Of a stretch of 64,000 bases of DNA, positions 469 through 12,562 are shown one piece after another. Made by a program: the position numbers and the translations under genes. How positions within the stretch are numbered: the stretch's first letter is position 1; each line of letters opens with the position of its first letter. The notes under the pieces were generated by a model that was given only the letters and a program-made list of their open reading frames with translations, had not been told where the DNA came from and ran no database searches. This DNA comes from Spirulina sp. (lineage in GTDB: Bacteria > Cyanobacteriota > Cyanobacteriia > Phormidesmidales > Phormidesmidaceae), in contig JBIPSI010000011.1 in NCBI GenBank assembly GCA_044070495.1, forward strand, positions 1 through 64,000. The letters run 5' to 3'.

Positions 469-1578
469 CTACAAAGAACCCTGGATACTAGACCTATCTC
501 TGAACAAAGAAGTTCGCTCGGTTTTTTGGGCCAAGATGGAAATATTGCCAGGATTACTTAATCGTTCCACCAACGATTTCCCGCTGTTAGGATTTTTACC
601 TGTTACAAATTTCACAACCCCATGGTGTTCTTCTGTCCAGGAGATTTTGTCTGGCCAGAATAGCGTAATATCCTCGGTGTGCAGACGTAGGGCAAAGATG
701 CTTTCTAGCAGTGAAAAGGCCAAATACTTGTCAGCTAGTAGGGATTCTGCATCTTCTTGCTGAGGCTCGATGTAGGGCTTCATAATTTCGAGCGACACTG
801 TATCTACACTCTTTACACCATGGGTGTTAGGCACAGATGCTATACGCCGACGTTTGCGGATGTCAGCAAGCTTGACATCTTCATACACGCGAAAATCGTC
901 TGGGAGCAGAGAAAGGGGTGGAGCATCAAACAGGGGTGGAGTCATGGGCTCATCAATGATGATGATTTTCCCGTCAATTTTACAAACCCTGAAAAACTCA
1001 AAAATTGCTGAGTAATACTTCAGCATATGATGGAGTGCTTGGCGGATAATTACAAAGTCAAAGCTTTCTTCTTCAAAGGGCAAGCACTCTCCATCCCCAC
1101 AAACCCAGTCCGCAGAAAGGCCCCTATCCTTTGTGGCCGATGCATAAAGCTGAACCAGATTAGGCACAATATCTAAAGCTATGATCTTTTTGCATCGTGA
1201 ATGGAAAAATTCGAGTTCTGAGAAAGAACAGCCTACGATTAAAACATTGGCTTCTGAGAGATCAATGCCAAACTTATTCAGTAGCTCCTGGCTGTTGCTA
1301 TCCTCAAAAATATTCCTTTGCTCATGCACTTCAGGAGGAATTACCTTTGTGTTGTACTCTTCCTCGCCCTTAATTTCATCAGCCTTCTTGTCCTGGTTCT
1401 CGTCTTTGATAAGCATGACTGGGACGCCATTATCTATAGAGAAATGACTGCCACATGAATTGCAGGACAGATGGGATCTATCGTCAGAGAGATAGGGATG
1501 GGAGAGACACACAGGGCAGACTAACTTCCTGATAAGATCAGGCGTGAACTGCTGACTCAGCTCTTCAGTTAATATCAT
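469..1578 (-). CDS. Trm112-like zinc-ribbon domain fused to a class I SAM methyltransferase
   Basis: N-terminal LVCPVC...LSCNSC...IDNGVPVML; VLIVGC, CGDGECLPFEEESFDFV, ALHH and RVCKIDG methyltransferase motifs. Confidence 0.75.
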   Translation of the reverse strand: MILTEELSQQFTPDLIRKLVCPVCLSHPYLSDDRSHLSCNSCGSHFSIDNGVPVMLIKDENQDKKADEIKGEEEYNTKVIPPEVHEQRNIFEDSNSQELLNKFGIDLSEANVLIVGCSFSELEFFHSRCKKIIALDIVPNLVQLYASATKDRGLSADWVCGDGECLPFEEESFDFVIIRQALHHMLKYYSAIFEFFRVCKIDGKIIIIDEPMTPPLFDAPPLSLLPDDFRVYEDVKLADIRKRRRIASVPNTHGVKSVDTVSLEIMKPYIEPQQEDAESLLADKYLAFSLLESIFALRLHTEDITLFWPDKISWTEEHHGVVKFVTGKNPNSGKSLVERLSNPGNISILAQKTERTSLFRDRSSIQGSL

Positions 1579-2391: not shown

Positions 2392-3738
2392 ATGAACTTA
2401 GAAGAAGCTCTACAGCACTTGCCAACTGATGCGTCTGAAGCGGAGGTAGTCGATAAATTTGTCCAGGCTTTTTTGGAGGCTTTGGGATTTAGTGATTTAG
2501 AAAGGATTCGAGAGTTTCCTGCTGGAGGTCGAAACGGAGTTGACGTTGCCGTACGCAAGAATTTAGATGGCGATATTTTTACTGAAAATAAAAATAATCC
2601 CTTTTTATATGTTGAAGCAAAAGCAAGGTCTAAAAATTTAGGCGATGAAAAACATCGTCATTACTGCGACACAGTTGAACAACTTAAGCGATACCTCCAT
2701 GCGCCTGTCTCTCATTCAGTTGCTTGGGGAATTATTACCAATTCTGCACATATCCAACTTTTTCGCAAACATGGCAAGATAGTCCATCCTGTAACTCCAT
2801 GCCTCTCAACAGGAGACAATATTCAGAAAATTGTGGATGACTTCAAGAAAATCATTTCAATGCCCAAACGCACCTTGACTATTGCTGTTTATAACAACAA
2901 AGGCGGAGTTGGCAAAACGACAACTACGCTGAATATGGCGGCCACTCTCATCAGAGAAGGCAAAAAGGTATTGATTGTAGATTTTGATCCAAGTCAAAGC
3001 GATTTAGGAGACGCCTTAAATCTTTCACCTCTGGATGGAGAGTTGCTAGAAGTTCTTAAGAGCAAAAACAGTGATGCAAAAGCGGCTATTTCAACATACA
3101 AATTTGAGCATCCTAGTCTAAAAAGTCCTTGGTGCATCGACATTATCCGTGCTGACTCAAGAATGGCTAATGATGTCGATGAAAATGATCTAAGGCAGCA
3201 TCTAAAGCTTCACGCGCTCAAGCGGTCTTTGGAATCTGTATCAAATGAATATGATTACATTCTAATTGATACACCTCCCAACTGGCGGATCTTTTCCCAG
3301 CAAGCTATCTATGCTGCGGATGTTGTTCTAATTCCTGCTCGTCATGATAATCTTCACTCCTTGCAGAACGCAGGCACAGCCATTGCCAAATATATTCCTG
3401 AGATTCAGCGAAAGCGTCAAGAACTAGAGGGAGAGGCTGGCCCTATTGCATTACCAATATTTATGAATAATGCATTCAAAGAAACTTCTCATCAAAAGCA
3501 ATTGATGCATAATGCTATTGCAAAAATAATCAAGGAAACGAGAAAGGAGATGAATGGCTTTGATTTGCTCCCTTATTTCTATCCACGTTATAAGGCTAGC
3601 AATAAAGATCTCACCATGATATCAATTCCTTATATGGCCTATATTTCACGGGCTGATTTTATGCATATACCAGCAGCCTTTGGATTCAAAGTTGCCCGTG
3701 AACAGTACCAGCAAATTGCAAAGGAGTATTTTCTATAA
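2392..3738 (+). CDS. Type I restriction HsdR N-terminal-like (PD-(D/E)xK) nuclease domain fused to a ParA/Soj ATPase
   Basis: EAEVVDKFV...LEALG, VDVAV, YVEAK, QLKRY, WGIITN (HSDR_N-like); then YNNKGGVGKTTT, IVDFDPSQ, YILIDTPP (ParA). Confidence 0.85.
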   Translation: MNLEEALQHLPTDASEAEVVDKFVQAFLEALGFSDLERIREFPAGGRNGVDVAVRKNLDGDIFTENKNNPFLYVEAKARSKNLGDEKHRHYCDTVEQLKRYLHAPVSHSVAWGIITNSAHIQLFRKHGKIVHPVTPCLSTGDNIQKIVDDFKKIISMPKRTLTIAVYNNKGGVGKTTTTLNMAATLIREGKKVLIVDFDPSQSDLGDALNLSPLDGELLEVLKSKNSDAKAAISTYKFEHPSLKSPWCIDIIRADSRMANDVDENDLRQHLKLHALKRSLESVSNEYDYILIDTPPNWRIFSQQAIYAADVVLIPARHDNLHSLQNAGTAIAKYIPEIQRKRQELEGEAGPIALPIFMNNAFKETSHQKQLMHNAIAKIIKETRKEMNGFDLLPYFYPRYKASNKDLTMISIPYMAYISRADFMHIPAAFGFKVAREQYQQIAKEYFL

Positions 3739-4568
3739 TGTCTCTATCTGATGTTGGCAACTTAATGTGCATCCCAATTGATGAAATTGAACCGGGAGAA
3801 ACGCCTGAGATTCATCAATATGTTCTTCAATTTACCGCCAGACAGTTTAATGGAAATAGCCGAAATTGGATTCCTGTAATCGTTAAAGAAATTGGCCTAG
3901 ATCGGTATCAGGTTATTGCAAATTCATTTGTCTATGCTGCGGCTGTTGAGGCAGGTCTCGAAGAAATTTGGTGCATTATTGCAGAAGACACGCCTGAAGT
4001 AGCTCAGTTAAGCCAAGCCCTAGCCCAAGAAACCCCGCCTAAAACTAATCTGTCAACCGCAGAGCGTGATGAAATATCAGCAGCTTTAGATTACCTCATG
4101 AAGCAGCCTGGAACATCGCTAAAAGGTGTTCGATCAGCTTCTGTGGTGGCTCGTTTGGATGAGGCTCCGCGTGAATATTGGCAAGATTTGAAACCGATCA
4201 CCAAACTTGGTTGTGGCATTACAGGGGCAGCCAAACTTAAAGCTCTGGAACAAGTTTTTTACCTTACCCCTCAGCCCATACCTGAAATCACTACTGATTG
4301 TCGTCTGCTAGAGATGATGACGGTTGGAGAATTGAAAGCGATGGCTAAAAAGCAAGGGCTAACAGATTACACCAAGCTTAAGCAACCGGATCTAGTGAAA
4401 TTGCTATCCAATCCTCCTGAGCCTAGGCCAGAAGCCACTAGCGATAGCCGTCCGCTAGAAAAGATGACCATCAAAGAGCTGAAAGCTATGGCAGAGGAAA
4501 AAGGGTTAACGGGCTTTGCCAAATTCAAGAAGCCAGAATTGGTGAAGCTGTTGGCCGAAGCTGACTGA
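3738..4568 (+). CDS. ParB/Srx-like N-terminal domain protein with two C-terminal Rho_N-like helical repeats
   Basis: IPIDEIEP...WIPVIVKEIGLDRYQVIA (ParB-like fold); two copies of LExMT(V/I)xELKAMAxxxGLTxxxKxKxPxLVKLL; TAATG stop/start overlap with the upstream gene. Confidence 0.7.
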   Translation: MSLSDVGNLMCIPIDEIEPGETPEIHQYVLQFTARQFNGNSRNWIPVIVKEIGLDRYQVIANSFVYAAAVEAGLEEIWCIIAEDTPEVAQLSQALAQETPPKTNLSTAERDEISAALDYLMKQPGTSLKGVRSASVVARLDEAPREYWQDLKPITKLGCGITGAAKLKALEQVFYLTPQPIPEITTDCRLLEMMTVGELKAMAKKQGLTDYTKLKQPDLVKLLSNPPEPRPEATSDSRPLEKMTIKELKAMAEEKGLTGFAKFKKPELVKLLAEAD

Positions 4569-4686
4569 CAAAATTTACCAGAATCCAGATTCATCAAAGG
4601 GTCAGGAGACCTGACCCCTACATTATCCGAAGGCTGTAGGGGCGTGATTGCCGCGCCCGGTGCAAAGGCTTTTGTTAGGCAACCAG
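4562..4686. repeat. MITE-like repeat family A (degenerate copy) containing a GTAG-type REP pair
   Basis: Reverse-complement homologue of 12433-12562; ends TGACTGACAAAA / TTTTGTTAGGCAACCAG; internal GGGTCAGGAGACCTGACCCCTAC...GTAGGGGCG. Confidence 0.85.
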
Positions 4687-8988: not shown

Positions 8989-9741
8989 ATGGTTGGACTG
9001 GACATTGGGGTGGAAACGCAGACACCAAAGCGGGAGTTTGACTTTTACCATACTCCGGTGTACCCCGTGGCGGATGCAGCCCGATACTTGCGTATTCCTG
9101 CTCCAACTCTGCGGTCGTGGCTTCAGGGTCGGTCTTACCGTACACCCCAGGGTTTAAAAAAAGCCTCCTCGCCACTCATTGAACGCCCGGACGCAAACCT
9201 CCCCTATCTCTCCTTTACGAACTTAGTGGAGGCCCATGTTCTACGCATTATTCGAGAAACCCACCAGATCCGACTAGACAAGGTTCGTCAAGCTCTAGAC
9301 TATATGGCTCAGCAATTGAAGACCGACCATCCCCTAGTCATGAAACAGTTTCAAACGGATGGTGTGGATCTCTTTGTGGAGCAAATGGCAGAAAATCAAG
9401 AGAATGCCCTTGTGAATATTTCGCGAGGGGGACAATTTGCGATGCGAGAGGTTCTAAACCAATTGCTGACCCGTATTGAATGGAATGCTGAAGGGATAGC
9501 CAGTCGGTTTTTTCCCATCACTGATATATTTGCCGATGCCAAAAGTGATAGGACTATCGTGATTGATCCATCCATTCGTTTTGGCAAGCCGATGATCTCT
9601 GGCAAAGGAATACCGACCAATGCCATTGTTAATTTATACAACGCTGGAGATTCTGTAAACGATATTGCCGAAGAGTTTGGCTGCACATCAGAACAGATTA
9701 GAGAAGCCATTCGATTTGAGTCTTTGCTATTAGCCGCGTGA
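8989..9741 (+). CDS. DUF433-containing antitoxin with N-terminal HTH (VapB45-like)
   Basis: YPVADAARYLRIPAPTLRSW; SFTNLVEAHVL; IDPSIRFGKPMISGKGIPT...AGDSVNDIAEEF. Confidence 0.85.
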   Translation: MVGLDIGVETQTPKREFDFYHTPVYPVADAARYLRIPAPTLRSWLQGRSYRTPQGLKKASSPLIERPDANLPYLSFTNLVEAHVLRIIRETHQIRLDKVRQALDYMAQQLKTDHPLVMKQFQTDGVDLFVEQMAENQENALVNISRGGQFAMREVLNQLLTRIEWNAEGIASRFFPITDIFADAKSDRTIVIDPSIRFGKPMISGKGIPTNAIVNLYNAGDSVNDIAEEFGCTSEQIREAIRFESLLLAA

Positions 9742-10169
9742 GCCAGCGTCACGATATTACGTTCTTTATCGATTGGTCAATCGGTCAACAAGCGGTACCT
9801 TCTGCCTTGAGATCAGTCGGCGCAAAGATTGAGACCCACGGGGATCATTTTGCCCCAGAAACCCTAGATGTGGATTGGCTAAGGATTGTCAGTGATAGGA
9901 ATTGGGTGGTCATTACCAAAGACGAAGCCATTGGGCGAAGACCCAACGAAGTCGAAACCATTGCCAGGGCAGGTGCAAAGGTATTCATCTTGGCATCAGG
10001 CAATCTAACCCGTCAGCAGATGGTCGATATTCTCGTTAGGGTTATCGTCAAGCTAGAAAATTTTGCCCAGAGTAATCCAGCCCCTTTTATTGCCAAAATC
10101 TATCAAGATCGGCATCTTAAAATGTGGCGCAACCACGCTCAACTCTTAAAAATGCTCAAATCATCCTAG
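9738..10169 (+). CDS. PIN-like toxin (VapC45-like)
   Basis: FFIDWSIG, DVDWL, WVVITKDEAI; GTGA overlap with the DUF433 gene. Confidence 0.8.
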   Translation: MSQRHDITFFIDWSIGQQAVPSALRSVGAKIETHGDHFAPETLDVDWLRIVSDRNWVVITKDEAIGRRPNEVETIARAGAKVFILASGNLTRQQMVDILVRVIVKLENFAQSNPAPFIAKIYQDRHLKMWRNHAQLLKMLKSS

Positions 10170-10850: not shown

Positions 10851-12065
10851 ACGTTACCCAGCGACCTACTGATCTACCGCTACCAAGGGGAAGCCATTCA
10901 GCCGCAGCGGTTGGCCTTAAATGGCGCGAATCGGGCCATGGCCACGGATTTAATCGGCATCTTCCAGGCCCAGGTGGGGCAGACCCAGGGCGACCTGAAC
11001 CGCCAGCTTCAGGACTTGGAAGGCGAAGACACCAACTACCGCATCCGGCGAGGGCTGGCCCATTTGCTGCGCAATCACTTTGCCACCTTCGAGCAGGTTA
11101 GCCCCTTGGAACCAGAGGAACTACGGCAGCGGATCTTTACCCTGGCTGCCCAGACGGTTCCCTCCCCGCAGAACGGCCAGCGCCACTATGCCCTCCTCAG
11201 CCAGCAGCTTAGTCAGGAATTGGAGAAAGAGGTGACCGTGGACGAGGTGCGCCAGGGCCTCTATGCCGACCTGCAAGAAAACCGCATCCTCACCACCTTT
11301 GATGCCCCCGAACCCGATGCCCTGCTGCACCGCTACAACCTCTCCCAAACCCAGGGCGTGTTCTACAAAGCCAGCGACCTGGTGATGCACCTCTACCGCA
11401 ACGATCCGGGCGAATACAAGCTGATGTTTCGCTACCTGAAGCTGTTTCGGTTGATGACCTACATCGAAGGCGACGCCGACCAGGGCTTCACCATCACCAT
11501 CGATGGCCCCGCCAGCCTGTTCAAACCCAGCACCCGCTACGGGGTCGATATCGCCAAGCTGGTTCCGGCCATCCTCCACGTTAGCCGCTGGCGACTCACC
11601 GCCACCCTGCAAATTAAAGATAGCTACAGCCAGAAAATTCGCAGTCGTCAGTTCACCCTCGATAGCGACTGCGGCCTGGTCACCCACTATCCCCCCGGCA
11701 AACCCTACGACAGCCAAATCGAAGAATCCTTCGTCAACCGCTGGCCCGCCGATTCTCCCTGGAAACTAGAGCGCGAAGTAGACCTGATCCCCATTCCCGG
11801 CAGCGTTATGATTCCCGACTTTCGCCTCGTCCACACCGACGGGCGAGAATACCTACTAGAAATCGTCGGCTATTGGCGACCGGAATACCTGCGTAAAAAG
11901 TTCGCCCAGGTTCGCAAGTCTGACCGCACCAACCTGATCCTCGCCATCTCCGAACGCCTCAACCTGGAAAAGGCGGGGGTGGACATCAACCAGGTGCCCG
12001 TGCCCATCGTGTGGTTCAAAACCAAGCTACAACCCAAGGCCGTGCTGGAGATACTGGAATCCTAG
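10851..12065 (+). CDS. DUF790 family (Bax1-like) endonuclease, probable ACG start
   Basis: LYADL, RYNLSQTQG, IDGPASLF...RYG, YDSQIEESF, IPDF, LEIVGYWRPEYL; frame open upstream of the called TTG to (T)LPSDLLIYR. Confidence 0.85.
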   Translation, partial: TLPSDLLIYRYQGEAIQPQRLALNGANRAMATDLIGIFQAQVGQTQGDLNRQLQDLEGEDTNYRIRRGLAHLLRNHFATFEQVSPLEPEELRQRIFTLAAQTVPSPQNGQRHYALLSQQLSQELEKEVTVDEVRQGLYADLQENRILTTFDAPEPDALLHRYNLSQTQGVFYKASDLVMHLYRNDPGEYKLMFRYLKLFRLMTYIEGDADQGFTITIDGPASLFKPSTRYGVDIAKLVPAILHVSRWRLTATLQIKDSYSQKIRSRQFTLDSDCGLVTHYPPGKPYDSQIEESFVNRWPADSPWKLEREVDLIPIPGSVMIPDFRLVHTDGREYLLEIVGYWRPEYLRKKFAQVRKSDRTNLILAISERLNLEKAGVDINQVPVPIVWFKTKLQPKAVLEILES

Positions 12066-12432: not shown

Positions 12433-12562
12433 CAGGTTAACTGACAAAAGATCCTGCGCCGGACGCGGAAACCGCGCCCCTACAAGATTTGGATAATGTA
12501 GGGGTCAGGTCTCCTGACCCTTTGGCGGATCTGGGTTCTCGCAAGTTTTGTCAGTCAACCAG
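12433..12562. mobile_element. MITE family A, complete copy with 9-bp target duplication
   Basis: TIRs CAGGTTAACTGACAAAA / TTTTGTCAGTCAACCAG; CCTTAGAAC directly before (12424-12432) and after (12563-12571). Confidence 0.9.

Follow-up and report, generated by a model that had tools for sequence, protein, structure and literature searches.

A coupled nuclease-ParA and ParB-like gene pair in a Spirulina genome fits the predicted effector-ParAB class

The stretch of DNA analysed here, called the window, comprises 64,000 nucleotides of a Spirulina sp. genome (assembly GCA_044070495.1, contig JBIPSI010000011.1, positions 1 to 64,000), and close to its left end lies a pair of plus-strand genes in which a restriction-type nuclease is joined to a ParA ATPase and set beside a ParB-like partner. 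Gene 1 (2392-3738) encodes a restriction endonuclease (REase)-ParA fusion of 448 amino acids, and gene 2 (3738-4568) a protein of 276 amino acids that combines a ParB/Srx-like fold, a helix-hairpin-helix (HhH) module and two helix-extended-helix (HeH) copies. The stop codon of gene 1 (TAA, 3736-3738) overlaps the start codon of gene 2 (ATG, 3738-3740) as TAATG, and an AAGGAG motif (3721-3726) stands 11 nucleotides upstream of that start; with this signal (3721-3740, plus strand), the two genes are predicted to be translationally coupled. A scan for promoters and terminators gave site numbers not above those in shuffled sequence. The guanine-plus-cytosine (GC) content of the module is 0.421 as against 0.559 in the rest of the window, about 14 GC points lower. 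An original prediction, made from the DNA letters, had described this TAATG-coupled, AT-rich pair as a partition-like module repurposed as an ATP-gated nuclease with a degenerate partner, and as a candidate new system; the coordinates, the overlap and the composition agree with that description, and all the motifs it quoted are present in the two translations.

The ATPase half of gene 1 (residues 161-448; 2872-3735, plus strand) is of the ParA/Soj type with a deviant Walker A motif. Pfam assigns residues 163-341 to AAA_31 (E 9.2e-34), and in an AlphaFold2 model computed from a 29-sequence alignment (predicted local distance difference test score, pLDDT, 92; predicted template modelling score, pTM, 0.92) residues 159-448 superpose on ParA (8ray_A; Z 27.9, root-mean-square deviation, rmsd, 2.6, 247 residues aligned), with ParA, Soj, MinD and McdA as the closest structural matches of this part. 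The N-terminal 140 residues (2392-2811, plus strand) form an HsdR_N-type PD-(D/E)xK nuclease domain. Pfam searches with the full protein give weak Mrr_cat (0.01) and HSDR_N (0.014) matches at this end, a profile of the domain has no match to PDB sequences up to E 10, and among the matches listed in a Foldseek search of the whole model against the PDB there are only ParA-, Soj- and MinD-type chains. Of 18 family members whose N-domain was scanned by itself, 17 match HSDR_N_2 (best 1.1e-7) and 9 match HSDR_N. In structure, the best match that reaches the N-terminus, at rank 39, is BpuSI, a restriction enzyme of type IIG (3s1s_A; Z 12.9, rmsd 3.3, 142 aligned).

The residues expected of both activities are present and conserved. 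Gene 1 carries E16, GVDVAV (D51), YVEAKAR (E75 and K77), EQLKRY (Q97), GIITNS (N117) and KGGVGKT (170-176). Across an alignment of 29 sequences reaching down to 30% identity, no change is seen at E16, E75, Q97 or N117, D51 and K77 occur in 28, and N168, K170, V173, K175, T176, D197, D199, Q202 and D293 of the ATPase are found in all 29. Since conservation of this degree extends to both sites, the PD-(D/E)xK centre and the deviant Walker A ATPase are under purifying selection, and both are predicted to work, as had been proposed from the catalytic residues and the complete KGGVGKT motif. Locus L053 alone departs from D51 and K77, with G and T in their places, and its nuclease domain is a predicted natural catalytic-dead variant. 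At another locus (L047, G200:C1:3400133-3401524), gene 1 has an in-frame TAA stop, its open reading frame (ORF) begins inside the nuclease domain, and gene 2 is intact. A search of 1.84 billion proteins with the N-domain profile returned 180 cluster representatives at E <= 0.001, 97 of them at <= 1e-10; most of the full-length ones measure 430-500 amino acids and the others are mainly short fragments, and from these match lengths the nuclease domain looks largely dedicated to fusion with ParA.

Gene 2 opens with a ParB/Srx fold (residues 1-102; 3738-4043, plus strand) whose identification rests on the fold search, because a sequence profile gives only marginal matches to Noc, ParB and Spo0J in the PDB (E 0.14-1.4), level with FtsY, and Pfam ParB_N (3.5e-4) falls below the gathering score. 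In the AlphaFold2 model (pLDDT 89), residues 3-102 match PadC (6ryk_B; Z 10.9, rmsd 3.2, 95 aligned), and KorB (8qa8_A, Z 10.7), sulfiredoxin (6ky4_A, Z 9.4) and Spo0J (1vz0_A, Z 6.2) follow. The canonical GxxRxxA motif with which ParB binds CTP is absent from gene 2. Its place is taken by A61-N62-S63-F64, within VIANSFVY; the family consensus at this box is G/A/S-N-S/H-F, and among the residues listed arginine occurs at position 63 or 64 in none of 35 sequences. The earlier reading of a ParB/Srx-like N-terminus with ANSFV at the GxRR position is thus borne out by fold and by family. Other positions are well kept, namely R42, N43, W44 and P46 (as R42-N43-W44-x-P46) and the residues R145, W148 and C159, which are invariant in 35 of 35 sequences. 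A conserved N-terminal peptide of the family (consensus DxGNLM) holds no basic residue.

Downstream of the ParB-like fold, the protein is built of predicted nucleic-acid-binding modules. Residues 100-177 (4035-4268, plus strand), which carry the sequence NLSTA, resemble the HhH domain of ComEA at modest Z (8dss_B, Z 6.5, rmsd 2.4, 62 aligned; 2duy_A, Z 6.3), and residues 186-276 (4293-4565, plus strand) contain two Rho_N/SAP-type HeH copies. Pfam recognises Rho_N in two stretches (1.3e-11), in keeping with the two Rho_N-like repeats noticed at the outset; residues 237-276 match the N-domain of Rho (1a62_A; Z 5.9, rmsd 1.4, 40 aligned), and this part also resembles SAP and LEM domains at Z 4-5. 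The ParB_N, HhH and two HeH parts cover the whole length, with no ParB helix-turn-helix (HTH) in gene 2. The protein is accordingly a ParB/Srx fold without the CTP-binding arginines in which HhH and HeH modules replace the HTH. The tail is modular: most homologues are about 226 amino acids long and have one Rho_N copy, the close relatives of the window protein have two, in at least 6 of the 35 sequences in the alignment a further HhH-like repeat takes the place of the second Rho_N, and the middle module is duplicated in P0134 and L048.

Modelling suggests that the two proteins may bind each other. Gene 1 and gene 2 co-fold with a score of 0.60, compared with 0.00 for the best of 3 controls; agreement between runs extends to at least 96% of contacts, and the partner has a pLDDT of at least 82. 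In a benchmark, 116 of 157 solved complexes passed the mark applied, as did 2 of 215 mismatched pairs; passing scores of 0.60 or under belonged to only 18 of the 157 solved complexes and to both of the mismatches. As solved ParA-ParB complexes exist, the pass may reflect likeness to them.

These features correspond closely to a class described in a recent preprint. In a purely computational study, Li, Burroughs and Aravind (October 2026; bioRxiv 10.64898/2026.10.19.760177) predicted an immune "effector-ParAB system", defined in section 15 as an operonic ParA-ParB pair of the ConB1 clade in which ParB is judged enzymatically inactive, an effector, "most commonly" a restriction endonuclease, is fused N-terminal to ParA, and an HhH or Rho-N-type HeH after the ParB domain replaces the HTH; the class is said there to be over-represented in multicellular bacteria such as cyanobacteria. 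Section 12 of the same preprint gives the PriB1/ConB1 ParA markers as an N that opens Walker A, a V inside it and a Q after DxD. At the Spirulina locus, the operonic arrangement is seen in the TAATG overlap and in the placement of gene 2 downstream of gene 1 at 29 of 29 other loci. The markers are present as N168, V173 and Q202 in all 29 sequences, which by these markers assigns the ParA to ConB1. The effector is the N-terminal REase (HSDR_N_2 in 17 of 18 members, BpuSI at Z 12.9, conserved catalytic residues), the partner has a ParB fold that has lost its active-site residues (Z 10.9 and 10.7; no GxxR arginines), and HhH and Rho-N HeH modules (HhH Z 6.5; Rho_N twice, Rho Z 5.9) stand where an HTH would be. 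Two differences stand out: the window copy joins an HhH-like module to two Rho_N copies where most homologues have one, and the preprint predicts immunity, whereas the neighbourhood control reported below shows no defence enrichment. The match is to the class as the text of the preprint defines it. On these sequence features, the pair is assigned to the effector-ParAB class, hitherto described only in silico. The suggestion that it was a candidate new system falls, because every sequence-level feature given for the described system is found here and a match to an already described system had been named at the outset as grounds for dropping that claim.

The derivation from partition machinery raises the question of whether the pair still partitions DNA. 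Features shared with classical type I ParABS systems (Soj/Spo0J, P1 ParA/ParB and F SopA/SopB) are a ParA with a deviant Walker A motif, a partner of the ParB/Srx fold whose gene follows directly and, according to the co-fold model, a probable contact between the two. Unlike those systems, the pair has a partner that lacks the GxxR arginines, an HTH and any basic residue in the N-terminal peptide, its ParA bears a catalytic-looking nuclease, and no parS array is seen nearby, as the original prediction had noted: the region upstream of the pair contains only repeats of 8-13 nucleotides, and a parS further away is possible. The proposal that the module serves true DNA partition or cargo positioning, with the nuclease-like domain a mere DNA anchor, would account for the completeness of the ParA, its kinship with ParA, Soj, MinD and McdA, the ParB fold of the partner, the usual single copy per genome and the copies on three Nostoc plasmids and one Acaryochloris plasmid. 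It is nonetheless improbable, as the catalytic residues of the nuclease are under purifying selection, the partner has no GxxR arginines and is explained along its whole length without an HTH, and no parS-like array lies nearby. The genome from which the window comes has, besides, a separate canonical ParB_N gene on another contig (67.6 bits), the Nostoc plasmid examined has its own ParA and ParM, and the pair was not found in most of the genomes searched, close kin included. The narrower idea that the pair is the chromosome's own parAB was rejected on account of the canonical gene elsewhere and the lack of a match in most of the sampled genomes.

In common with HsdR of type I systems and with type IIG BpuSI, gene 1 couples a PD-(D/E)xK nuclease domain to an NTPase that works on DNA; it differs in that its motor is a ParA dimerisation switch and not a superfamily 2 (SF2) translocase. 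In contrast to type I restriction-modification loci, no HsdM, HsdS or DNA methylase stands beside the pair. The gene upstream of it (469-1578, minus strand) does encode a methyltransferase, which according to Pfam is of the Methyltransf_11/UbiE type and carries a Trm112p-like zinc ribbon at its N-terminus; PADLOC gives no match to it, and the module can for this reason be called methylase-free as regards DNA methylases, as had been claimed. With no HsdM, HsdS or DNA methylase, any discrimination of self from non-self cannot be by methylation. This methyltransferase gene shares a low-GC stretch (0.43-0.47) with the module and may have arrived together with it; it is not linked to the module in other genomes. 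A further relative is found in the ParA-HeH systems treated in section 14 of the preprint, in which a ConB1 ParA is likewise paired with an HeH-bearing protein and one subtype of which, with a HEPN gene, is reported there to have been shown elsewhere to be antiphage. The partner in the window differs in having a ParB/Srx fold, the effector is fused to ParA and not encoded by a third gene, and the tested example belongs to a different subtype and comes from a different phylum.

Full-length homologues number in the hundreds for gene 1 and for gene 2, and those that are named are all cyanobacterial, with hosts that include Nodosilinea, Leptolyngbya, Phormidium, Trichodesmium, Scytonema and Pleurocapsa. 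The gene 1 family was matched at E <= 1e-30 in 42 of 301 sampled genomes of the phylum, at 45 listed places of which 36 are full length and without stops. Its presence is patchy: 8 of 14, 7 of 35 and 8 of 18 genomes in three families and 6 of 10 in one genus carry it, and eight families, with 165 genomes together, gave no match. The single other genome of the window's own family (G264) lacks the pair and, in this one comparison, shares only an MBL-rhodanese gene with the window locus, with no synteny. Genomes that have the pair usually hold one copy. The constancy of pairing at other loci, which had been proposed as a check, is complete, and there is no conserved third gene, the surroundings differing among distant genomes. 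The module is lower in GC than its flanks at 18 of 20 other loci, by 0.02-0.15. A Walker A pattern search of genome contigs returned ordinary ParA genes, with a family member at 1 of 80 loci (L079, Chroococcopsis).

Host-family labels, compared with shuffled labels on a tree of 35 gene 1 sequences, point in two directions. Three host families are each split into at least 3 clades parted by starred branches, and the two copies of one genome fall in different clades. At the same time, the labels change 17 times (minimum 13, shuffled mean 23.4), so that much of the inheritance is vertical within families. The history of the pair is a mix of vertical descent and transfer, and its behaviour is that of a mobile accessory module, common in cyanobacteria though unevenly distributed. 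Its copy on the 35.7-kb Nostoc plasmid NZ_CP091922.1 lies beside a separate small ParA and ParM, and is for that reason cargo there and not the only partition system of the plasmid. A LuxR-type HTH gene precedes the pair on this plasmid (L076, 21543-24168); such a third gene does not recur in the 20 chromosomal loci examined.

The explanation favoured here, with slightly better than even confidence, is that the pair is a ParABS-derived, horizontally mobile, methylase-free two-gene conflict module that serves the exclusion of foreign DNA, possibly with abortive killing. Gene 2 would bind DNA through its HhH and HeH modules, recognising molecules that are foreign or of abnormal structure, for instance a plasmid or a phage genome, and would engage gene 1. 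On that DNA, the ParA domains would dimerise as an ATP-driven sandwich, which would pair two nuclease domains and license cleavage. Without the GxxR arginines, gene 2 would act as a static adaptor or brake and not as a cycling CTPase clamp; the invading DNA would be excluded, or the cell would die should the brake be lost. The preprint offers a related model: on recognising invader DNA, ParB would recruit ParA to build a static coat, and the effector would serve as a force multiplier or suicide back-up. A conflict or accessory role gains support from the signals of mobility, that is, patchy presence, low GC and tree incongruence. Individual loci also place the pair next to genes of the defence type, with HEC-01A/B adjoining it in L053, a type II methyltransferase-REase in L056 and Mrr in L043, or of the conflict type, with NERD in L045, an RRXRR HNH protein in L040 and Uma2 plus EAD4-NACHT in L039. 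At L053 (9341-10717 (-), 11172-12946 (-)), the pair stands directly beside a complete HEC-01A/HEC-01B candidate defence pair.

A number of results weigh against this explanation. No system model in PADLOC-DB v2.0.0 matches the pair and gene 2 has no match there; gene 1 shows weak matches to PDC-M28B (1.2e-8, over the Walker A region, residues 157-199) and mad2 (1e-3). PADLOC matches at E <= 1e-12 were counted among proteins of 100 amino acids or more encoded within 6 kb of the module at 19 loci, and among those of control loci that lie 100-300 kb from it in the genomes concerned: 21 of 173 proteins near the module match, compared with 17 of 87 for the controls, where the scan covered 87 of a set of 173. 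In both groups the matches are mostly generic (ABC ATPases, Ser/Thr kinases, GTPases), and since the module loci are also not above the controls, there is no defence-island signal; neither this enrichment nor a PADLOC match, both of which had been put forward as checks, has materialised. Most neighbours are housekeeping genes (ATP synthase, ribosomal proteins, tRNA synthetases). The REase, ParA, ParB_N and HhH parts have mean pairwise identities of 0.45-0.55, no domain being hypervariable, and evenly conserved domains of this kind are unlike an arms-race sensor. Vertical inheritance within families adds to the list, as do the scarcity of plasmid records with a copy (only 4, the three from Nostoc and one from Acaryochloris) and the lack of a full-length copy in 50,697 phage records, where 16 records match the ParA part only and 0 of 16 cover 80% of the query. 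A full-text literature search found no published experiments on this system. The anatomy of the repurposed partition module thus stands, and the immune or defence role attached to it is a prediction only and unproven, with no enrichment behind it.

Several of the same results would suit a role in surveillance of the host's own DNA, for example in clearing damaged or surplus chromosome copies from polyploid cells, and not in defence against invaders. All named homologues are cyanobacterial, conservation is even with no hypervariable parts, most of the neighbouring genes are of the housekeeping kind, and there is no enrichment of defence matches. The patchy presence of the pair, its GC content below that of the flanks, the tree incongruence and the double and plasmid copies would all be unexpected of such a function, which is rated very unlikely. 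With little confidence, one may also speculate that the module is a ParABS-derived DNA-culling device of polyploid cyanobacteria, not an antiphage system, in which the degenerate ParB would mark abnormal DNA, be it incoming plasmids or damaged and surplus chromosomes, and the ATP-dimerised ParA would cut it, affording a methylation-independent form of self/non-self discrimination or quality control.

An addiction module is also conceivable, in which a nuclease-ParA toxin is restrained by the ParB-like protein and the locus, chromosomal or plasmid-borne, persists by killing cells that lose it, with no primary antiphage role. Toxin-antitoxin-like addiction would explain the tight and invariant coupling, the patchy, mobile-like distribution, the occurrence of the pair on mobilizable plasmids beside other toxin-antitoxin pairs, and the lack of a defence-island signal. 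It would also explain why gene 2 is still present in G200, where gene 1 has a TAA stop, and why the L053 copy could lose D51 and K77. The presumed toxin gene comes first, however, and both proteins are large, each of which is unusual for type II toxin-antitoxin pairs, and the full ParA ATPase machinery and three DNA-binding modules have been conserved beyond what an inhibitor pair needs. Addiction is on balance considered unlikely, and foreign-DNA exclusion remains the favoured explanation.

Should that prediction prove true, the pair would represent a restriction-type nuclease gated by partition machinery and not by DNA methylation, and so a distinct way of telling foreign DNA from a cell's own. 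It is common in cyanobacteria, where such barriers hinder genetic engineering. With two genes, clear catalytic residues and natural variants that are catalytic-dead or broken, the pair lends itself well to testing the whole ParA-based class of predicted immune systems.

The module is flanked by repeats, as the original prediction had held in placing it between an insertion sequence (IS) remnant and a miniature inverted-repeat transposable element (MITE). The second of these is a reasonable reading: directly 3' of gene 2 lies a dispersed, MITE-like repeat of 118 nucleotides (4569-4686), with 40 other copies at 76-86% identity in the whole 5.3-Mb assembly, one of the 40 being elsewhere in the window at 12435-12550 (minus strand). 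The IS remnant is plausible: a repeated element 5' of gene 1 (1740-2068) has 9 other matches in the genome at 71-76% identity, and an ORF at this repeat (1608-2012) matches no Pfam family. Further along the window, in a second low-GC patch (0.46-0.50), a DUF433/HTH_66 gene and an overlapping PIN_10 gene (8989-10169, plus strand) look like a toxin-antitoxin pair. A DUF790 protein (10911-12065, plus strand; E 1.1e-143), of a family without known function, is encoded next to an ExbD gene.

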